Positions 50,380 to 63,403 of a DNA stretch of 64,000 nt are shown here, piece after piece; position 1 is the stretch's first letter; every line of letters begins with the position of its first letter. Source of the stretch: Candidatus Nanohalobium sp. GTDB lineage: Archaea > Nanohalarchaeota > Nanosalinia > Nanosalinales > Nanosalinaceae. A program made the translations under genes and the position numbers. The DNA is taken from assembly GCA_042217555.1 (NCBI GenBank), contig JBDGSL010000002.1, forward strand, positions 32,001 through 96,000, read 5' to 3'. The notes under the pieces were generated by a model. It ran no database searches. It saw only the letters and a list, made by a program, of their open reading frames with translations, and had not been told where the DNA came from.

Positions 50380-53226
50380 ATGGAGCTCAACAAAGTATCC
50401 GAAAACATCTACGAAATACCTCAAAAAGGAGATATGAACAAGCCAGGAAGGGTTTACGCAAACGAAGAACTCCTGGAAGAAATCAAACAGGACGACACAC
50501 TACAACAAGTCAAAAACATGGCTACACTGCCCGGACTGGAAAAATACTCAATCGTCATGCCAGACGGCCACCAGGGCTACGGATTCCCCATCGGGGGAGT
50601 CGCAGCAGTAAACAAGGAAAACGGAGTTATAAGCCCGGGAGGAATCGGCTACGATATAAATTGCTTAACGGAAGATTCGGAAGTTTTACTGGATAATGGG
50701 AGGCGAAAAAGCATTTCAGAACTTAAAGACAGTTTTGATGGTGAGAAAGCAGTGGTAGCTGCGGATAAAACAGTTAAGTCAGATATAATGCTGTTTACAG
50801 AGAATGAGGATAAGAAAGTATTTGAAGTGGAGACTGAGACAGGAGAAACTATCGAGGCTACTGCTGATCATCCTTTTATGACTGAAGAAGGAATGGTTGA
50901 ACTGGAAGATCTCTCTGAAGGATCACAAATCTTCGTCCGTCCCTTTAAAGGCGTCCAAGATTCTGAACCTGAAGAGTTCACTATCTTAGATGAAGAAGAT
51001 TTCCAAGACGAAAACCACCAACTGGTGGCGGCACTAAAGGAAAGGAATCTACTTCCATTGAAATCAACTGATGAAAAACTAAATACTTTGCTCAAACTAG
51101 TCGGATTCCATACGGGCGACGGGTCTTTCAACAACCACGGTGAGACAACTTTCTATGCTGAAAAAGAAGACTTAGAAGTAATTCAGAAAGATATAAAGAG
51201 ACTAGGTTTCAAGCCTTCAAAGATTTACTTCAGAGACAGAGACCACTCGGTTAAAGACCACGAGTTTTCAAGAACAGAACATTCAGTGAAGTCAACTTCT
51301 AGAGCCTTTCAGAAGCTTATGATTAAACTCGGGGCGCCTAAAGGAAGGAAGACGCAGCAAGAGTTTACTACTCCAAACTATCTGCAAAGACTGGAGAAAT
51401 GGCAGAAAGCGCTCTACCTATCAGCCTTCTTTGGAGCAGAAATGAGTTCTCCTTCAGCGAGCCAACGGAAAAACCTTTACTGTCCGAAAATCTCTCAGAA
51501 CAAGTCGATTGAAGCACAGGATTCGGGTAGAAAGTTCATGAAGGAAGTAAAGGAGATGCTGAATGAACTTGATATCAAAACCAATAGCATGGAAGAGTTT
51601 GAGACAGAGGAAAATAGCTACGGAAAAGTCAAAAGATTCAGACTGGGCATCAAAAATGATTCTGAGAATCTGCTTAACTTCTTCCAGAAGATAGGGTATA
51701 GATATAATTTGGAGAAGAGTAAGAAGTCTATCAAAGCCGTTCAGTATCTCAAAAAGAAGCATAAAGCAATCCAGCGAAGAGAAAAGATAGCACAAGAGAG
51801 TATAGAACTCTATGAGTCCGGAGAACAACCCAAGAAAATCAAGCAAAAATTCGATATCAATGAAAGGTTCATAGAAAGAAGCATCTACAGCGGGCGAAAA
51901 ACTGTTTCTAGGCCTCCAAAAAGTTTCCCGGATTATGACGAATACGTCAAACAGATAGGAGTTCACGACAATCTAGCTGTCAAGACATCAATCAAAAGCA
52001 TCGAAGAAAAAGGAAGGGAAACTGTCTACGACATAGGAGTAAAACACGAAGCACACAACTTCATAGCAAACCAATTTATTGTATCTAACTGCGGCGTACG
52101 TGTCCTAAAAACAGATTTAAGCTATGAAGAGATAAGAGGAAAGGAGCAACAGCTCGCAAATATACTATTCAATAAGGTACCGTGTGGTCTTGGGAAAGGA
52201 GGGTATATCGACCTTGAAGAAGAGGAACTGGACGAGATACTGGATAAGGGCATGGAATGGATGCTGGAGAACGGCCATGCAACGGAAGAAGACCTGAAGC
52301 ACTGCGAGGAGAACGGAAGACTGGAATGTGACGCTTCCAAGGTTCCTGAAGACGCCAAAAAGAGAGGGATTAAACAGGTAGGCTCTCTAGGTTCAGGAAA
52401 TCACTTCCTGGAAGTGCAGAGAGTGGAAAACGTGTTTAACGAGGAGAAAGCAGAGGCCTATGGCCTGGAAGAAGGCCAGATCCTAGTCATGATCCACTCT
52501 GGCTCCCGTGGACTCGGACATCAGACATGTACAGAGTACCTGAGAAAGTTCGAGAAAAACTACCCGGAGATAGTAGAGTCTCTTCCGGAAAAAGAACTTA
52601 TCTACGCACCGCTCGGCGACGAACTCGCACAGGACTACAAGAACGCGATGTTCGCAGCAGCAAACTATGCCTGGGCCAATCGACAGGGCATAACTGAAGC
52701 GGTCAGAGAAAGCCTGGACACACTGTTCGGCGATACTGAAACAGAGCTGGTCTACGACGTCTGCCATAACATCGCCAAGGAAGAAAAGCATGAAGTCGAC
52801 GGAGAAGAGAAAGAATTGCTGGTTCATCGAAAAGGAGCGACCAGAGCCATGCCTTCGGGACGACCAGAAGTACCGGAAGCATACAGCGAGGCAGGGCAAC
52901 CAGTACTACTTCCTGGAAGCATGGGAACCAGCAGCTACATACTCTCAGGCGGACAAAACTCACTGGAACTATCCTTCGGCTCAACTGCTCACGGCGCAGG
53001 ACGGCTCAAATCAAGGACACAGTCCAAAAAAGACTACAGGGCAGCCGACGTACAGAGAGAACTCAAAAGAGACCAGATCTTCGTCAAAGCAGCCTCGGGA
53101 GAAACCATAGAAGAAGAAGCGCCCGGCAGCTACAAAGACGTCGACGAAGTAATCAAAGTCTCAGACGAACTTGGAATTGGGGAGAAAGTAGTCCAGATGA
53201 AGCCGATAGTGAATGTTAAGGGCTGA
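50380..53226 (+). CDS. rtcB: RNA ligase RtcB containing an intein
   Basis: MPDGHQGYGFPIGG, GYDIN^CGVR, GSGNHF, HSGSRG, HRKGAT, HGAGR. Confidence 0.96.
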   Translation: MELNKVSENIYEIPQKGDMNKPGRVYANEELLEEIKQDDTLQQVKNMATLPGLEKYSIVMPDGHQGYGFPIGGVAAVNKENGVISPGGIGYDINCLTEDSEVLLDNGRRKSISELKDSFDGEKAVVAADKTVKSDIMLFTENEDKKVFEVETETGETIEATADHPFMTEEGMVELEDLSEGSQIFVRPFKGVQDSEPEEFTILDEEDFQDENHQLVAALKERNLLPLKSTDEKLNTLLKLVGFHTGDGSFNNHGETTFYAEKEDLEVIQKDIKRLGFKPSKIYFRDRDHSVKDHEFSRTEHSVKSTSRAFQKLMIKLGAPKGRKTQQEFTTPNYLQRLEKWQKALYLSAFFGAEMSSPSASQRKNLYCPKISQNKSIEAQDSGRKFMKEVKEMLNELDIKTNSMEEFETEENSYGKVKRFRLGIKNDSENLLNFFQKIGYRYNLEKSKKSIKAVQYLKKKHKAIQRREKIAQESIELYESGEQPKKIKQKFDINERFIERSIYSGRKTVSRPPKSFPDYDEYVKQIGVHDNLAVKTSIKSIEEKGRETVYDIGVKHEAHNFIANQFIVSNCGVRVLKTDLSYEEIRGKEQQLANILFNKVPCGLGKGGYIDLEEEELDEILDKGMEWMLENGHATEEDLKHCEENGRLECDASKVPEDAKKRGIKQVGSLGSGNHFLEVQRVENVFNEEKAEAYGLEEGQILVMIHSGSRGLGHQTCTEYLRKFEKNYPEIVESLPEKELIYAPLGDELAQDYKNAMFAAANYAWANRQGITEAVRESLDTLFGDTETELVYDVCHNIAKEEKHEVDGEEKELLVHRKGATRAMPSGRPEVPEAYSEAGQPVLLPGSMGTSSYILSGGQNSLELSFGSTAHGAGRLKSRTQSKKDYRAADVQRELKRDQIFVKAASGETIEEEAPGSYKDVDEVIKVSDELGIGEKVVQMKPIVNVKG
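50662..52089 (+). mobile_element. Intein with LAGLIDADG homing endonuclease, 476 aa
   Basis: CLTEDS start, ATADHPF block B, LVGFHTGDG and YLSAFFGAE, VYDIGV...HNFIANQFIVSN/C end. Confidence 0.95.
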
Positions 53227-57706: not shown

Positions 57707-58678
57707 ATGGCAGACAAGAATAGATCAAGAAGCGGTTCACTGGCGTACAAGCCCAAGACACGGGCTGAAAGAATCTACCCAGACGTAAGTACGTGGGAAG
57801 ACACAGACAAACAAAAACCATTAGGATACGCAGGATACAAGGTCGGAATGACCCGGGTACTGCGAATAGATGATACAGAAGGAGCAACACAGGGACAGGA
57901 AATCGCAACACCTGTAACAATTCTCGAAGCTCCGCCACTGAGAGTTTACGGAGCACGTTTCTACGTTGAAGATATCAACTCTGGAAAACAGGTCTTCACA
58001 GAGGCCTGGACAGAAAGCCCTTCGAAGGAACTCCAGAGAGCAACAGACATCCCGAAAGAAGGAAACATGGACAACCTGGAGAAAGCAAAGGAAAACTCAG
58101 GGAATATTACGGATGTCAAGCTGTTGGTTCACACTCAGCCTTCTCGTGCAGGAATCAGTAAGAAGAAACCTGCCAACTTTGAACTCGGCCTAGGTGGCTC
58201 AGTTGAAGATCAGCTTGAGTACGCAGAAGAGATGATCGGAAAAGAAATCGAGTTCTCGGACGTATTCGAGGAAGGAGAGTACTCGGACGTTATCGGTGTT
58301 ACGAAAGGAAAGGGAATGGAAGGTCCTGTACAGCGTTACGGAATCAAGAAGCTGGACCACAAGACGCAGAAGAAAAGAAGAAAGGCTGGAAACGTCGGTC
58401 CATGGCATCCGGACCAGCTTTCATGGAGAATTCCTCTTCCAGGACAGCAGGGTTACAACAACAGGACAGAGGAAAACAAGAGGATCCTCGCACATGGTGA
58501 AGACCCAGAGGAAGTTCAGAGGGATGGAGGATTCAAGAACTACGGAGAAGTCAAGTCCAACTACATTTTAGTTAAGGGAAGCGTACCAGGACCGGCAGAA
58601 AGACTGGTCCGACTTAGAACAGCACTGAGAAAGGATGAAAAACCAGGAAATCCAGAGATCACGCACATCGAAAAATAA
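57707..58678 (+). CDS. rpl3: 50S ribosomal protein uL3
   Basis: RSGSLAY, GYKVGMT, TKGKG, GPWHP, KGSVPG. Confidence 0.97.
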   Translation: MADKNRSRSGSLAYKPKTRAERIYPDVSTWEDTDKQKPLGYAGYKVGMTRVLRIDDTEGATQGQEIATPVTILEAPPLRVYGARFYVEDINSGKQVFTEAWTESPSKELQRATDIPKEGNMDNLEKAKENSGNITDVKLLVHTQPSRAGISKKKPANFELGLGGSVEDQLEYAEEMIGKEIEFSDVFEEGEYSDVIGVTKGKGMEGPVQRYGIKKLDHKTQKKRRKAGNVGPWHPDQLSWRIPLPGQQGYNNRTEENKRILAHGEDPEEVQRDGGFKNYGEVKSNYILVKGSVPGPAERLVRLRTALRKDEKPGNPEITHIEK

Positions 58679-58689
58679 GGTGAATTAAA

Positions 58690-59445
58690 ATGGAGCTACC
58701 AAACCAGTTCGACGAGAGGATAAGGCCAGACATCATCAAGAGAGCCAACCTTTCAATCAAGAGCAAGAAAAGACAGGACTACGGGTCAGACCCGGAAGCA
58801 GGACTGCGACACGTAGTATACTGGAAAAAACAGCAAAACGCATACAGAGGGCAGAAAGGAAAGGGAATGTCTCGTACTCCTCGAAAGATCCGTGTCAGAA
58901 GAGGAAGTCAGATCTATGGAGACGGAGCAGAAGCACCGAACACGATCGGTGGCAGAACCGCCCATCCTCCAAAAGCAGAGAAAAACTTTGAAGAAGAGAT
59001 CAACGACAAGGAAAGAAGAAAGGCAATCAGGTCAGCAATCGCAGCAACAGCAGACCGGGAACTTGTCTCAGAGAAACATGAGTATGAAGGAGAAGTCCCG
59101 ATTATCGAGGAAGGAATCTCAGGGATTGAAAAGACACAGGAACTCAAGGAGAAGCTCGAAGACCTTGGACTTGAAGACGAACTTGACAGAGTGTCCGAGA
59201 AGAAAGTTAGAGGAGGTAAAGGAGCCAATCGTGGAAGAAAGTACGTTAGAAAGGTTGGCCCGCTTGTAGTAACAGCGGAAGACGAAGGAATCTCAGATGC
59301 GGCAAGCAACCTGGCAGGTGTAGACCACTCCCAGGTAGATCAGCTGAACGCCGAAAAACTTGCTCCAGGAGCAGAACCAGGAAGACTGGTTGTATGGAGC
59401 AAAAAAGCAGTAGAGAAACTTGAAGAAGACGGTATGTACCAATGA
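58690..59445 (+). CDS. rpl4: 50S ribosomal protein uL4
   Basis: IRPDIIKRA, GGRTAHPPK, LAPGAEPGRL. Confidence 0.97.
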   Translation: MELPNQFDERIRPDIIKRANLSIKSKKRQDYGSDPEAGLRHVVYWKKQQNAYRGQKGKGMSRTPRKIRVRRGSQIYGDGAEAPNTIGGRTAHPPKAEKNFEEEINDKERRKAIRSAIAATADRELVSEKHEYEGEVPIIEEGISGIEKTQELKEKLEDLGLEDELDRVSEKKVRGGKGANRGRKYVRKVGPLVVTAEDEGISDAASNLAGVDHSQVDQLNAEKLAPGAEPGRLVVWSKKAVEKLEEDGMYQ

Positions 59446-59501
59446 AAACGAAAACACAAGGTTTTCTAAGATTCAGCAACACGCGAGGTGTAACTGAATA
59501 A
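59442..59501 (+). other. Hairpin mini-ORF 1 (MKTKTQGFLRFSNTRGVTE)
   Basis: ATGA overlap with the rpl4 stop; TAATG overlap with the rpl23 start. Confidence 0.6.
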
Positions 59502-59770
59502 TGGAAGTTGACAGAGCATGGGAAGTTATCGAAAATCCACACATGACAGAACAGGCGATGGACATGATCGACGAAGAAAACAAACTCGTCCTCATGGTGG
59601 ATCTGGAAGCAGACAAAGGCCAGGTAGAGGACGCAGTAGAGACTCTGTTCGATGTGGATGTTGAGAAGGTCAATACTAACATCACGTCTTCCGCAAAGAA
59701 AAAAGCATACGTAAGACTAAGTCCAAGTGACAGCGCGATGGACGTCGCGACTGAGCTTGGCATGATGTGA
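59501..59770 (+). CDS. rpl23: 50S ribosomal protein uL23
   Basis: PHMTEQA, VEKVNT, KKAYVRL. Confidence 0.96.
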   Translation: MEVDRAWEVIENPHMTEQAMDMIDEENKLVLMVDLEADKGQVEDAVETLFDVDVEKVNTNITSSAKKKAYVRLSPSDSAMDVATELGMM

Positions 59771-59780
59771 GGTAGGTAAT

Positions 59781-59834
59781 ATGACTAAAATCGAAGATTT
59801 TATGGGTTACCAGAAACTCGGTGAGTTTCGATAA
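59781..59834 (+). other. Hairpin mini-ORF 2 (MTKIEDFMGYQKLGEFR)
   Basis: GAGGT upstream; TAATG overlap with rpl2; two palindromes. Confidence 0.65.
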
Positions 59835-60535
59835 TGGGATCGCCACTAAAACAGCAGAGAAGAGGAAAGGGAAGTCCAAACTTCCAGGCCAATAAGAAAG
59901 GCAAGGGAGTAACGGATCACAAAAACGCAGAAGTAACGGGAACAGTAGTAGACCTGGTCCACGACCCGGCCAGGACAGCACCGGTAGCAAAAGTAGAGTT
60001 CGAAGACGGAGAAGTCAGAAACATTCTTGCACCGGAAGGCCTACAGACAGGAGACGAAATTCAGGTCGGAGTATCAGCACCTGTAGAACCCGGAAACGTA
60101 CTTCCACTAGGAGAAATCCCGGAAGGAGTACCAATCAACAACATCGAACTACAGCCAAACGACGGAGGAAAAATGGTTAAGGCATCAGGAACATACGCAT
60201 TCGTCGTAACACAGGAGCAGGACGGAGTAAGAATCAAGCTTCCAAGCGGTGACTTCAAGAAACTCGATACTGAATGCAGAGCAACAGTTGGAAAGGTTGC
60301 AGCCGGCGGAAGAAAAGACAAGCCGCTTGTCAAGGCCGGAAACGCATCCAAGGCTGCAAAGGCTCGTGGAAAACAGTACCCAACTGTCTCCGCAGTAGCC
60401 ATGAACGCAGTCGACCACCCATTCGGTGGATCAGCAAAACCAGGACAGCCAAAGACAGTTTCCAAGCACGCTTCACCAGGAAGCAAGGTTGGAAACATCG
60501 GAGCCAAACGCTCCGGAAAGAAGAACAACGACTAG
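59834..60535 (+). CDS. rpl2: 50S ribosomal protein uL2
   Basis: QRRGKG, HDPARTAP, AMNAVDHPFGG. Confidence 0.97.
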   Translation: MGSPLKQQRRGKGSPNFQANKKGKGVTDHKNAEVTGTVVDLVHDPARTAPVAKVEFEDGEVRNILAPEGLQTGDEIQVGVSAPVEPGNVLPLGEIPEGVPINNIELQPNDGGKMVKASGTYAFVVTQEQDGVRIKLPSGDFKKLDTECRATVGKVAAGGRKDKPLVKAGNASKAAKARGKQYPTVSAVAMNAVDHPFGGSAKPGQPKTVSKHASPGSKVGNIGAKRSGKKNND

Positions 60536-60545
60536 GTGAACCCGC

Positions 60546-60605
60546 ATGACTAAAATCAAAGATTTTATGGCATTGCAGAAAACCACTGAGGTGGTTTTCG
60601 AATGA
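60546..60605 (+). other. Hairpin mini-ORF 3 (MTKIKDFMALQKTTEVVFE)
   Basis: AGGTGA upstream; ATGA overlap with rps19; first 25 nt match mini-ORF 2 with one mismatch. Confidence 0.65.
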
Positions 60606-60979
60606 CAGAAGAATTCACTTACAGAGGAAAAACACTCGAAGAACTCCAGGACATGAGCCACGACGAACTAGCACCGCTTATGGATGCCCGGGCTCGCAGA
60701 AAACTGGAGAGAGGTCTTCGAGAAAACGAGGAAAAACTACTGGAAAAACTGGAGGACAAGGACCGTGTCCAGACACATCTCAGAGGAATGATCGTCCTTC
60801 CAGAAATGGTAGGAAAGACTATCGAGATCTACAACGGGCAAGGATTCGAAGAGGTTGATATTGAAGAAGAGATGATTGGCCACTACCTAGGAGAGTTCGC
60901 AAAAACCAGGAAAGAAGTATCACACAGCGCACCAGGACTCGGTGCTACAAGATCTTCAAAGCACGTACCGCTTAAGTGA
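60602..60979 (+). CDS. rps19: 30S ribosomal protein uS19
   Basis: FTYRGKTLEEL, THLR, MIGHYLGEF, GATRSS. Confidence 0.97.
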   Translation: MTEEFTYRGKTLEELQDMSHDELAPLMDARARRKLERGLRENEEKLLEKLEDKDRVQTHLRGMIVLPEMVGKTIEIYNGQGFEEVDIEEEMIGHYLGEFAKTRKEVSHSAPGLGATRSSKHVPLK

Positions 60980-60984
60980 TTCAA

Positions 60985-61092
60985 ATGCGAAAATCAGAGA
61001 TTCGAAAATTCGGAGAATTTTCTCCAAGAAATTCCTCACGGAATTTCGTTTTCAGCCTTCCCAGAAACTCACAAGGTGAGTTTCGGCAATGA
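60985..61092 (+). other. Hairpin mini-ORF 4 (35 aa, MRKSEIRKFGEFS...GEFRQ)
   Basis: ATGA overlap with rpl22; three palindromes. Confidence 0.6.
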
Positions 61093-61511
61093 ACAAGATC
61101 GAAACAGAACCACATCAGGCAAGAGCACTCGGCAAGAACATGCCGATCTCCTGGAAAGACGCAACAGAAATCGGCCGCTTCATCAAGGGAGACACGGTCG
61201 AAAAAGCAGAGAGAAAACTGGAAAAGGTAACGGAAGAAGAACTCGCCGTACCGTACACAAAGTTCGACAGCGACGCAGGCCACCGAAGCGGAGACGGAGA
61301 CTCAGGAAAATATCCTGTCAAAGCAGCAGAACACATGCTTGAAGTCGTACAGGAAGCAGCAAGCAACGCAGAACACCAGGGACTTAACCCGGGATCACTG
61401 CATGTAGAAAACGTCATCACAAACAAAGGAAACGAGTACGCAACCCCTGGACGGTTTAGGGGAGAGAAAACCAAGGCAGCACATGTCAACGTAATCGTAG
61501 GTGAAAAGTAA
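61089..61511 (+). CDS. rpl22: 50S ribosomal protein uL22
   Basis: ISWKDATEI, GKYPVKAA, NAEHQGL. Confidence 0.95.
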   Translation: MNKIETEPHQARALGKNMPISWKDATEIGRFIKGDTVEKAERKLEKVTEEELAVPYTKFDSDAGHRSGDGDSGKYPVKAAEHMLEVVQEAASNAEHQGLNPGSLHVENVITNKGNEYATPGRFRGEKTKAAHVNVIVGEK

Positions 61512-61615
61512 TGAATCGAAAACGAAAATTCAGTGAATTTTCTCAGAGAAAATCCTCAGGGATTTTCGGATCAGAGATTTTCTCAGTGATTTACACGCAA
61601 GGTGAAAATCAATAA
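61511..61615 (+). other. Hairpin mini-ORF 5 (34 aa, MNRKRKFSEFS...QGENQ)
   Basis: TAATG overlaps at both ends (rpl22 stop, rps3 start). Confidence 0.65.
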
Positions 61616-62769
61616 TGCAAGAGAAACAGTTTATTGAGAAGGGAGCAAGGAAGGTAAGGCTTGATGAGTTCTTCTCGGATGAGCTTGCAGGAGCAGGTTA
61701 TTCCAACTGTGAAATTGAGAGGACTCCTACAAGTACCAAAATCGTAGTACATGCACAGAAACCAGGACTGGTTATAGGACGTGGTGGAAGCAGGATTCAG
61801 GAACTGACTGAAGATCTTGAAAGCGAGTTCGATTTCGAGAACCCGCAGATCGAGGTCAGCGAGATCGATGAACCGGATGCAGACGCAAAGGTCGTGGCGA
61901 AGAGTATTGCAGACTGGCTTGAGAAAGGAGGCCACGCCAAACGTGTAGGATACACATACGTCCGCAGGATGAAAGAAGCAGGTGTTATCGGAGCAGAGAT
62001 AGAGATTACAGGAAAACTCTCCGGTAACAGAGGAAGAACAGAGAAGTTCTCCTTCGGATACGTCAAGAGATGTGGAGACACCTCAAAGAAAAACGTTCAG
62101 AAAGGATACGAGCTAGCCCGTACCAAACCAGGTGCTATCGGTGTCAAAGTAAGGATCATGAAGGACATGCCAGGTTTCCTTCACAGAGACGTCGATGTAA
62201 GCGGTGAAGTCCTCCATGAAGTCCAGGAAACTGAGGAAGCAAGAGATAAATCCACGAGGATTGAGGAAGTCGTCAGAGAAGCAGAGAATATGACTTCGGC
62301 AGAGCTTGAAAGAGCTATCGAGGAGAAGACAGAGGAAGTCAAGACAGACGACATCTCCAAGGAGGAAATCAGGGAAGCCTTCGACTCCGCTGACGCAGTA
62401 GAGAAACTGGAGGAAGAAGCTGAAGAAGTCGAAGAAGAAGCAGAGGAAATCATCGAGGAAGAAACAGGTGAAGAACAGGAAGAAGACGTTGAAGCAACTG
62501 AAAAGGAAGCTGAAGAAGTCAAAGAAGAGGCAGAGAAAGTTGCTGAAGAGACAGAGGATGAAGACGTAGAAGAAAAGGCTGAAGAAGTTGAGGAGGAAAT
62601 GGAAGAAGTAGAAAAAGACCTTGAGGAAATCGTCTCAGGTACGATAAGCGATGCCAAAGAGATGATCAACGAACTGGAGAATCCTGACTTCACAGCCCTG
62701 CTCGAGGCAGAGAAAGAGAACAAGGACCGTAAAACCTTCAAGGACTGGCTTGAAACCCGGAAGGATTAA
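61615..62769 (+). CDS. rps3: 30S ribosomal protein uS3 with long acidic C-terminal extension
   Basis: KPGLVIGRGG KH domain, GAEIEITGKL, GVKVRI. Confidence 0.96.
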   Translation: MQEKQFIEKGARKVRLDEFFSDELAGAGYSNCEIERTPTSTKIVVHAQKPGLVIGRGGSRIQELTEDLESEFDFENPQIEVSEIDEPDADAKVVAKSIADWLEKGGHAKRVGYTYVRRMKEAGVIGAEIEITGKLSGNRGRTEKFSFGYVKRCGDTSKKNVQKGYELARTKPGAIGVKVRIMKDMPGFLHRDVDVSGEVLHEVQETEEARDKSTRIEEVVREAENMTSAELERAIEEKTEEVKTDDISKEEIREAFDSADAVEKLEEEAEEVEEEAEEIIEEETGEEQEEDVEATEKEAEEVKEEAEKVAEETEDEDVEEKAEEVEEEMEEVEKDLEEIVSGTISDAKEMINELENPDFTALLEAEKENKDRKTFKDWLETRKD

Positions 62770-62794
62770 AAGAGCTGAGAGGTGAAACCAAACC

Positions 62795-62983
62795 GTGAAA
62801 GCAGAAGAACTAAGAGAGAAGAGCGTATCCGAACTGAAGGAAGAACTTGGAAACCTTCAGAAAGAACTCGTACAGCAGAGAGGACAGATCGAGGCCGGAG
62901 GATTCGCTGACAGCCCGGGAGAGATCAAAGAGATGAAGAAAACCATTGCAAGAATCAAAACAGTTCTCAACGAACGCAACTAG
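62795..62983 (+). CDS. rpl29: 50S ribosomal protein uL29
   Basis: ELREKS...KKTIARIKTVLNE; GAGGTGA SD; GTG start. Confidence 0.95.
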   Translation: MKAEELREKSVSELKEELGNLQKELVQQRGQIEAGGFADSPGEIKEMKKTIARIKTVLNERN

Positions 62984-62989
62984 ATACTA

Positions 62990-63097
62990 ATGAACGAAAT
63001 TCACAGAATTTCTGGAATCAAAGGCCTTTCAGGCCTTCTGCAACCTAGAAACCTGAAAGGTTTCGGAACTGCAGAAAATCGGGAGGCCGATTTTTGA
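62990..63097 (+). other. Hairpin mini-ORF 6 (35 aa, MNEIHRISG...NREADF)
   Basis: TGA immediately followed by the SUI1 ATG; four palindromes. Confidence 0.6.
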
Positions 63098-63403
63098 ATG
63101 TCAGAGACCTGTCCAAAGTGCGGAATGCCTGAAGATCTTTGCGTCTGCGACAGCATCGCACGTGAAGATCAACAGATTACAGTAAAACTCGACTCAAGAA
63201 GCTACAATAAAGAGATGACAGTAGTTGAAGGCCTTGAAGAAGGATCAGAAATAGACGAACTGGCCTCGACACTGAAATCCCAACTTGCCTGCGGAGGAAC
63301 AGCCAAGGAAGGCCACATAGAACTTCAGGGCGACCACAGAAGAAGAATCGTCGACATACTGGAAGACGAAGGCTTCTCACGAGAAAACATCGAAGTCAAA
63401 TAA
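63098..63403 (+). CDS. Translation initiation factor aIF1/SUI1
   Basis: CPKCGMPEDLCVC, LACGGT, IELQGDH. Confidence 0.95.
   Translation: MSETCPKCGMPEDLCVCDSIAREDQQITVKLDSRSYNKEMTVVEGLEEGSEIDELASTLKSQLACGGTAKEGHIELQGDHRRRIVDILEDEGFSRENIEVK

Follow-up and report, generated by a model that had tools for sequence, protein, structure and literature searches.

Mini-ORF cassettes in a nanohaloarchaeal ribosomal protein operon are probably copies of a mobile double-hairpin repeat

Introduction

The window examined here, a 64,000-nt stretch of DNA, carries an S10-type operon (rpl3-rpl4-rpl23-rpl2-rps19-rpl22-rps3-rpl29-SUI1; 57707..63403, + strand) of a nanohaloarchaeal host whose closest named S19 relative was Ca. 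Nanohalobium sp. (97%). L3 and SUI1/YciH were identified in this operon; the genes between them are presumably rpl4, rpl23, rpl2, rps19, rpl22, rps3, and rpl29. From rpl3 to SUI1, the spacers measured 11, 55, 63, 66, 109, 103, 25, and 114 nt, in order, and six of them were spanned by mini-ORFs built from hairpins. What are these mini-ORFs, and how did they come to lie between the genes? An earlier note on this DNA had offered two readings: a dedicated translational relay or regulatory system, or a selfish palindromic element that is tolerated only when it preserves ribosome passage.

Results

Six mini-ORF cassettes bridge the spacers of the operon

The earlier note had reported six ATG-initiated, stop-free mini-ORFs of 19, 17, 19, 35, 34, and 35 aa, and their coordinates and lengths were all correct. 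As it had described, three of the mini-ORFs ended in TAATG, two ended in ATGA, and one abutted the next start. Two of the six starts overlapped the previous stop and four were located 5 to 10 nt after it, and the palindromes that had been quoted were found in the sequence.

All six cassettes were on the + strand. The rpl4-to-rpl23 cassette (59442..59501, 19 aa) had an ATGA entry and a TAATG exit; its hairpin 1 (59450..59466) had GAAA...TTTC arms with one mismatch, and its predicted hairpin 2 (59471..59499) enclosed the Shine-Dalgarno (SD) sequence for rpl23 (59485-59490). The rpl23-to-rpl2 cassette (59781..59834, 17 aa, TAATG exit) contained hairpins at 59786-59802 and 59813-59829 and an SD at 59820-59824, and the rpl2-to-rps19 cassette (60546..60605, 19 aa, ATGA exit) contained hairpins at 60551-60567 and 60578-60599 and an SD at 60588-60593. 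The last hairpin of the rps19-to-rpl22 cassette (60985..61092, 35 aa, ATGA exit) was at 61064-61084, with an SD at 61074-61079. The rpl22-to-rps3 cassette (61511..61615, 34 aa) had TAATG at both entry and exit and an SD at 61600-61605. Finally, the rpl29-to-SUI1/YciH cassette (62990..63097, 35 aa), whose stop abutted the ATG, contained hairpins at 62996-63012, 63048-63064, and 63075-63094 and an SD at 63082-63086. In each case, the SD was located inside the last hairpin.

The mini-ORF start was the former start of the host gene in four of the six cassettes. At the rpl2-to-rps19 junction, comparison with two other genomes (G001 and G003) indicated that the original host SD and spacer still precede the mini-ORF ATG. 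Eight further spacers of the mini-ORF type were found in the spc operon just outside the window.

Hairpin spacers are bridged by ORFs more often than expected by chance

The bridging was compared with a chance rate obtained by dinucleotide shuffling of each spacer with its flanks fixed. The joint bridging probability was 1.4e-6 when any start codon was allowed and 4e-9 when only ATG was allowed, values that overstate significance because the six cassettes are related copies chosen post hoc. In a cleaner test, 32 of 33 hairpin spacers in 31 genomes were bridged by an ORF, versus 8.3 expected. At held-out loci, 19 of 23 hairpin spacers were bridged. Among 42 long methanogen spacers, none contained such a hairpin and one was bridged.

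Filled and empty sites, shared copies, and nested copies

Eighteen same-genus orthologous sites were compared, of which 12 were empty, 5 contained a cassette, and 1 contained a 115-aa ORF; the compared genomes share ancestry, and counts made across them are therefore not independent. The rpl4-to-rpl23 site was empty (10-12 nt) in all three same-genus genomes. At rpl22-to-rps3, all three had versions of 52-55 nt, and we take this cassette to have been inherited within the genus because it was filled in all four genus members. Similar copies occurred at different junctions and in different genera. The rpl23-to-rpl2 cassette was 89% identical to the rpl4-to-rpl23 cassette of G009, a member of another genus, and the rps19-to-rpl22 cassette was 96% identical to a G009 cassette, whereas the flanking genes were 75-77% identical. 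Among the 16 best pairs, cassettes from different junctions and genera showed 77-89% identity. In four DNA sequencing runs (85% likeness), we observed joints that skip spacers, in most cases with different nucleotides at the joint. Such joints may derive from relatives in the same community, and the best runs may be the source sample; we therefore base no conclusion on them. The runs listed included none of RNA.

Two of the long cassettes contained a nested 46-nt double-hairpin unit (both + strand). The unit in the rps19-to-rpl22 cassette (61003..61048) lay within hairpin 1, on its 3' arm, and accounted for 48 additional nt, including a 2-nt duplication. The unit in the rpl22-to-rps3 cassette (61523..61568) lay on the 5' arm instead, again within hairpin 1, and this spacer was 103 nt in the window versus 55 nt in G001. 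All five nested units that we found (four of 46 nt and one of 49 nt) were at one arm position, and a 46-nt unit with its apparent 2-nt duplication lengthened the ORF by exactly 16 codons. L260 and L262 differed by one nested unit. The ends of the element were short (CGAAA...TTTCG).

The repeat is dispersed in the genome and favors highly expressed operons

A profile built from 21 foreign cassettes matched 38 loci in the genome under study (G000) and none in the reversed genome. Eighteen of the 38 loci ended at a start codon, and all of these were on the gene's strand and had a mini-ORF. The genome contained 116 perfect hairpins. The repeat was also present in 11 tRNA introns, and of 14 orthologues of an endonuclease III-like gene, 2 carried a copy in frame. 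A further copy was located at a broken DGR (C75) without avd and the template repeat; a DGR origin or a role as a DGR cis-acting hairpin was rejected, as the hairpins were absent at the intact DGRs of G003 and G058. Looser hairpins followed the C86 repeat. Viral sequences contained at least 121 scattered matches to a 14-base pattern, which are probably due to chance.

Cassettes occupied 14 of 22 S10/spc junctions in this genome versus 19 of 153 other SD-led junctions, and they were enriched ahead of ribosomal, RNA polymerase, ATP synthase, and EF-2 genes (codon-bias test, p ~1e-5). A pure filter does not explain this strong bias. It is one of several observations that would fit a domesticated coupling device, that is, a repeat of mobile origin that is now kept or spread for its SD-hiding hairpin and leader ORF and that would tighten coupling, tune subunit stoichiometry, or protect mRNA in highly expressed operons.

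The unit itself was a double hairpin of ~46-50 bp with GAAA...TTTC arms and usually a purine-N-A triloop in hairpin 1. In 43 of 45 cassettes, an SD-like motif came before the start of the host gene; it agreed with the 16S tail, for which the anti-SD was taken from relatives because the 16S 3' end of G000 was unassembled. RNA folding predicted that the SD is paired and hence occluded (unpaired, 0.25 versus 0.52), with a program that has no special triloop term and by a method that does not separate RNA from DNA hairpins. The ORF and SD outlasted the hairpins in 15 of 28 (initial set) and 8 of 15 (held-out set) long spacers without hairpins, and a second, unrelated-looking type of insert had the same design; like the occluded SD, these observations would fit a domesticated device. 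However, no junction was consistently filled across the genomes compared, and some near-complete genomes (G018, G019, and G022) lacked a hairpin cassette in the operon, with 0 exact palindromes; G065 was likewise free of the repeat, and G000, G007, G020, G053, and G067 were rich in it. The SD-bearing hairpin was not better kept: the two hairpins decayed alike (retained in 34 versus 33 of 54), and one-sided losses affected the SD-bearing hairpin and hairpin 1 about equally often (10 versus 9). In addition, the stems were almost purely Watson-Crick, unlike those of RNA regulators, with G-U pairing in 0 of 154 pairs of hairpin 1 (a figure that the pattern itself partly dictates) and in 3 of 165 of hairpin 2. 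We regard domestication as unlikely.

Candidate mobilizers and target duplication

HUH transposases recognize subterminal hairpins with small loops, and the single TnpA element of G000 has hairpins inside its ends. These points suggested a PATE/MITE-type element mobilized in trans by an IS200/IS605 TnpA or another IS transposase. When IS605-type elements at C11 and C1 were read by eye, hairpins were found within their ends, but the repeat interrupted these end hairpins rather than forming them. Moreover, the palindrome was present in 49 of 70 genomes versus 4 of 70 for TnpA; PF01797 (TnpA) had no match in the other 66, including repeat-rich single-contig genomes such as G009 and G020, which contained 7 and 11 exact palindromes, respectively. 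We regard a PATE/MITE-type element as highly improbable. The lack of PF01797 matches in these 66 genomes also spoke against RAYT-associated REP/REPIN elements, with the proviso that a divergent RAYT could lie below detection. The occurrence of TnpB (over the cutoff in 14 of 70 genomes), RT (7 of 70), Cas1 (1 of 5), and DDE_Tnp_1 (the sole DDE family searched; over the cutoff in 1 of 5) did not track the repeat, and tyrosine recombinases were found in 5 of 5 genomes and were thus uninformative.

Evidence of target duplication was weak: repeats of at least 7 nt that included the ATG were found in 11 of 70 cassettes versus 4.2 by permutation (p=0.0014). The shared ATG context was 3 nt in 21, 4-5 nt in 33, and at least 6 nt in 16 of the 70 cassettes. 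A general long target-site duplication, as hinted by cases of 21 and 16 nt, was rejected (downstream extension, p=0.11; 5 nt or less in 54 of 70), and the 16-nt case may be the scar of an earlier copy.

Mini-ORF lengths, frames, and exits

We consider it very improbable that the mini-ORFs encode regulators of ribosomal protein synthesis, whether as attenuator-like leader peptides or as functional microproteins. Translational attenuation does use a leader ORF with a hairpin that sequesters the SD, and the lengths were concentrated at 17-19 aa (43 of 70 cassettes), but hairpin 1 was read in all three frames (11, 7, and 4 of 22), there was no junction-specific conservation, the length modes followed from element size and the 16-codon nesting, and a search for Rfam cis-regulatory RNAs or r-protein leaders yielded four weak matches, none near the gathering threshold. 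In the 70 cassettes, a set chosen for bridging, the exit was at -4 or -1 in 46 and at 0 in 13.

Discussion

The results suggest that the six mini-ORFs are probably copies of a mobile repeat with two hairpins, which belongs to Nanohaloarchaeota and is tolerated via translational coupling in a MIRU-like manner. Several points count against this reading: no candidate mobilizer examined tracks the repeat, target duplication is weak, a pure filter leaves the bias toward highly expressed operons unexplained, and the rpl22-to-rps3 cassette is inherited within the genus. Of the two readings in the earlier note, the selfish palindromic element that preserves ribosome passage was supported by the filled and empty sites, by the copies common to junctions and genera, and by the occurrence of the repeat within tRNA introns, the ends of IS elements, and one coding gene. 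A dedicated relay or regulatory system was not supported, in view of the inconsistent filling of junctions, the use of three frames, and the equal decay of the SD-bearing hairpin.

The filled and empty sites show that the repeat inserts immediately after the ATG of operon genes with an SD, and the former SD and ATG of the host gene then serve as the beginning of an ORF of 17-19 codons. Rescue would depend on an anatomy that we observed, namely, an SD in hairpin 2 and an ORF stop that overlaps or abuts the new ATG. Ribosomes from the old start would open up hairpin 2, finish at the stop of the mini-ORF, and then begin again at the host gene. The bridging statistics suggest that frame-breaking inserts are purged from essential operons, and nested copies (46 + 2 = 48 nt) would preserve the frame. 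The fate of a cassette can be read as a series in which the hairpins decay, the ORF and SD remain, and the cassette becomes shorter or is lost. The repeat most likely moves as DNA, through hairpin-triggered breakage and templated repair or through a factor in trans, and the mini-ORF peptides would have no function.

A bolder version of the mobile repeat seems doubtful at present. It holds that the repeat is a transposase-free mobile translation-initiation cassette that targets start codons via host machinery, moves between genera, nests in itself, and is partly domesticated as a bicistronic coupler. Access would be gained via transcription-exposed or cruciform DNA and templated repair, and the most highly expressed operons would be targeted. 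Site-specific self-insertion of 46+2 nt would keep the frame by construction, and the hidden new SD would make essential genes depend on the mini-ORF.

MIRUs reportedly go back to Supply et al. in 1997. According to the accessible text of two papers (PMC12548453, PMC3184786), they are 40-100 bp long, occur in tens of copies with internal inverted repeats and at filled and empty sites, insert at start codons, and have an internal ORF overlapping the neighboring genes that is thought to render insertion harmless; the mobilizing enzyme is not named there. The earlier note knew of no description of such an arrangement, which was wrong in kind, as MIRUs are inserted at start codons and have an internal ORF that is coupled to the host gene (PMC12548453). 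Both repeats belong to the 40-100 bp class, have tens of copies, start-codon inserts in operons, and filled and empty sites, and contain an internal ORF coupled downstream, in our case as indicated by anatomy. The nanohaloarchaeal repeat differs from the MIRU, as far as these texts describe it, in being an archaeal, AT-rich double hairpin rather than a mycobacterial element with G+C-rich inverted repeats; in its exits, which span -4, -1, 0, and up to +4 rather than -4 only; in apparently lacking a constant tetranucleotide duplication; in placing the SD in the last hairpin; in growing through nested rather than tandem copies; and in having also invaded tRNA introns, the ends of IS elements, and one CDS. 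It thus appears to work like a MIRU without being one, and its AT-rich arms argue against homology.

Tiny hairpin repeats are known elsewhere. Rickettsia palindromic elements are bacterial examples that are patchy, tolerated in genes, and retained in the transcript. Organellar double-hairpin elements and yeast GC clusters are likewise patchy among relatives, tolerated inside genes, and kept in the transcript like the nanohaloarchaeal repeat, but the available part of the source reports no rescue by translation reinitiation for them (PMC2800124). SMR-A of Haloquadratum walsbyi, also from a halophilic archaeon, is a non-coding element with inverted ends that inserts in the near-terminal palindromes of IS605 elements, as the repeat does, and its mobilization is called "enigmatic" in the text at hand (PMC3119063). 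It is ~110 bp with no target duplication, whereas our unit is 46-49 nt with an apparent 2-nt duplication when nested, and the same text reports no start-codon targeting or mini-ORF; some SMR sequences may nevertheless be related to the repeat. In the synthetic bicistronic design, as outlined in PMC12548453, ribosomes reach a coupled start by way of a short leader ORF, and structure around the second ribosome-binding site is thereby overcome; that design is engineered, whereas the nanohaloarchaeal cassette is natural, mobile, and polymorphic. We found no account of such an arrangement in Nanohaloarchaeota in the literature searched, and the cassettes described here appear to be an archaeal variant, new in this respect, of an arrangement known from mycobacterial MIRUs.

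How palindromes without an enzyme of their own (MIRU, SMR, and double-hairpin elements) move is a long-standing question. Mobility is testable with this repeat, which offers a 46-nt unit, a recurrent hairpin-arm target, near-identical filled and empty pairs, and cultured relatives in which no matching transposase was found. The 70 collected cassettes are, in addition, a set of natural alleles in which archaeal termination-reinitiation can be compared. For the organism, the mobile-repeat reading would mean that a selfish microelement, because it brings its own translation restart, can persist even in the most essential operons of an archaeon with a reduced genome.

Mini-ORFs bridge spacers in ribosomal protein operons

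The earlier note had described six mini-ORFs filling spacers of the ribosomal protein operon (59442-63097), and their lengths and start/stop overlaps matched that description when the window sequence was re-read. Dinucleotide shuffles put the joint chance of all six spacers being bridged (i.e., spanned by a mini-ORF that runs from beside the preceding stop codon to overlap or abut the next gene's start) at 1.4e-6, a value that overstates significance because the six copies are related and were selected post hoc. No Rfam family fitting the mini-ORF spacers was found. The closest named relative of the S19 protein was Candidatus Nanohalobium sp. (97%), and the host is therefore a nanohaloarchaeon. 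Elsewhere in the window, two further family hairpins were intergenic (591-609 and 674-692), and a 948-aa ORF (50380-53226, plus strand) presumably resembles RtcB carrying a large intein.

Each mini-ORF lay in a cassette, a double-hairpin repeat (~46-50 bp, GAAA...TTTC arms) located behind a host start codon. We compared the S10 and spc junctions of the source genome and 30 relatives (40 genomes searched). The six sites were examined in three genomes of the same genus: of these 18 junctions, 12 were empty (6-13 nt), 5 held a cassette, and 1 held a 115-aa ORF. In the source genome, cassettes occupied 14/22 S10/spc junctions; eight were in the spc operon beyond the window (contig C12, 99229-105526), and several of these had decayed hairpins with the ORF and SD intact.

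The bridging set consisted of 61 spacers of 30-170 nt, excluding longer gaps as well as the junctions at SUI1 and rnp1. Bridging was observed in 32 of 33 hairpin spacers (8.3 expected; 10 of the 33 were the source genome's own) and in 15 of 28 hairpin-less spacers. The single unbridged hairpin spacer, rpl30-rpl15, had a coupled 17-aa ORF with a late start. For 29 held-out nanohaloarchaeal loci (20 + 9; 152 distinct junctions), 19/23 hairpin spacers and 8/15 other spacers were bridged; visual inspection of the four misses showed that three stopped 5 nt short of the start, leaving one true miss. The outgroup comprised 52 loci, chiefly from methanogens; among its 42 long spacers, 0 had a hairpin and 1 was bridged.

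Other insert types were observed at ribosomal junctions. Longer inserts (84-159 nt; L035 in G010, at rpl22-rps3; L263, L335, L339, and L340; L028 in G039; L050 in G035) began at the old ATG and often stopped near the new start; one was two tandem ORFs, and tRNA introns of the source genome (C27 tRNA-Arg) held similar sequence. Acidic ORFs of 102-115 aa were inserted at rpl2-rps19 or rpl23-rpl2 (L031, 3221-3565; L039, 3981-4286, minus strand; L337, 1848-2162 and 2881-3189). Every one ended in a TAATG overlap, two were 85% identical to each other, and none matched the source genome's called proteins. At rpl15-secY of G009 (L034/L061), a 128-nt insert lay just within secY, and a 21-nt duplication rebuilt the entire stop-spacer-start junction.

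Cassettes behave as mobile units

Across junctions and genera, identity between copies was 77-89% (16 best-matching pairs). The rps19-rpl22 cassette was 96% identical between the source genome and G009, compared to 75-77% for the flanking genes, and was missing in same-genus genomes whose flanking genes were 79-90% identical. Judged from these sequence comparisons, the cassette is mobile as a single unit. When 21 foreign cassettes were used to build a profile, it matched 38 loci in the source genome and 0 in the reversed control. Of the 38, 18 ended at a start codon; each of these lay on the gene strand and had a mini-ORF whose stop fell at -8 to +7 nt. The genes behind cassettes (23/26 proteins could be named) mostly encoded ribosomal proteins, subunits B and D of ATP synthase, subunits A' and B of RNA polymerase, Spt4, EF-2, PheT, Rrp41, and PyrH. 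Beyond S10/spc, 19 hand-listed cassettes compared to 134 SD-led tight junctions without one.

The old host SD-like motif was kept ahead of the mini-ORF ATG in 34/45 cassettes (258/341 in empty junctions), and a new one, in agreement with the 16S tail of four relatives, preceded the host start in 43/45. The cassette SD was predicted to be paired (median unpaired, 0.25 versus 0.52). Among 70 pooled cassettes, exits were at -4 in 22, -1 in 24, and 0 in 13, and mini-ORFs were 17-19 aa in 43 and 33-36 aa in 10, the second mode arising because of nested units. Five distinct nested units, four 46 nt long and one 49 nt long, shared a single position in a hairpin arm; they occurred on both strands and apparently duplicated 2 nt. 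Two lay within the window, and one such unit was the difference between loci L260 and L262. The start-codon duplication varied (at least 7 nt in 11/70, with 4.2 expected by permutation; 5 nt or less in 54/70). Cassette-like ends in 6/341 empty junctions are possibly scars.

The hairpin family extends beyond start codons

The source genome contained 116 perfect GAAA...TTTC-type hairpins, 102 of them outside genes as called by a simple purpose-made gene finder. One exact palindrome pattern occurred in 49/70 genomes of the order (reversed control, 0 in every genome), and a loop-restricted version occurred in 36/52. In the source genome, family hairpins also sat in 11 tRNA introns and interrupted the terminal hairpins of IS605-type elements. 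ARAGORN called introns of 33-268 nt in 35/42 tRNAs, some calls being mis-assigned; excerpts of PMC10266531 give 15/39 and 4/38 for cultured relatives. Many introns were packed with several types of hairpin repeat. One tRNA-Ser (C12, 110803-111235) had an intron containing a hairpin; after it, the 3' part of the tRNA recurred as a second copy, broken up by hairpins. An endonuclease III-like gene carried an in-frame 60-66 nt double-hairpin insert in 2/14 orthologues, at the same site in two genera (source genome C44, 5240-6022; G023 C12, 22941-23723) and with different types of hairpin 1, the first hairpin.

No mobiliser tracked the repeat among TnpA (4/70 genomes), TnpB (over cut-off in 14/70), RT (7/70), Cas1 (1/5), and DDE_Tnp_1 (over cut-off in 1/5). 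TnpA, RT, and over-cut-off TnpB were all absent from single-contig genomes G009 and G020, which had 7 and 11 exact palindromes, respectively. The source genome had two DGR-type reverse transcriptases (C75, 51923-54482; C38, 1-2293; C86, near 2700-2830); a double hairpin at the junction of the C75 DGR, which lacked avd and a template repeat, supplied the target gene's stop codon.

Proposed mechanism and possible regulatory role

The repeat unit, its targets, its polymorphism, its SD placement, and its nesting can be read directly from the genomes, and the bridging statistics suggest a frame filter on inserts. In the proposed mechanism, cassettes would move at the DNA level, ribosomes would translate the mini-ORF and thereby melt hairpin 2 (the last hairpin, enclosing the new SD), and reinitiation on the host gene would follow. 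According to excerpts of PMC10666635, coupling in Haloferax depends on genes overlapping or lying very close together and is almost gone at ~20 nt; therefore, genes separated by an insert of 50-110 nt would lose coupling unless an ORF bridged it.

Cassettes might instead have a regulatory role, given that they were skewed towards highly expressed operons and that the ORF and SD outlasted hairpin decay. However, all three reading frames were used over hairpin 1 (11, 7, and 4; n = 22), and the SD hairpin was kept no better than hairpin 1 (intact in 33 and 34 of 54 simple cassettes, respectively). In addition, 20/22 loops were purine-N-A triloops and stems were nearly all Watson-Crick, features that suit DNA hairpins, in which GNA triloops are highly stable. 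The expression bias and the ORF/SD persistence are also compatible with cassettes entering transcription-exposed DNA and a one-way dependence arising afterwards.

Relationship to known elements

The earlier note knew of no description of this arrangement. For Nanohaloarchaeota, none was found in the literature searched, which included portions of PMC10266531 and PMC10969869 and lay outside subscription journals and some supplements. A comparable arrangement exists in MIRUs, which, in the available parts of PMC12548453 and PMC3184786, insert at start codons and contain an internal ORF coupled at -4. The nanohaloarchaeal cassette appears to work alike, but its host and composition place it outside the MIRUs. 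As in SMR-A repeats, for which IS605 palindromes are targets (PMC3119063, in part), the repeat sits in IS605-type end hairpins; organellar hairpin elements, as excerpted from PMC2800124, are a looser analogue. Start-codon hairpin cassettes are real, and their archaeal form is new, while the MIRU-like arrangement was already known.
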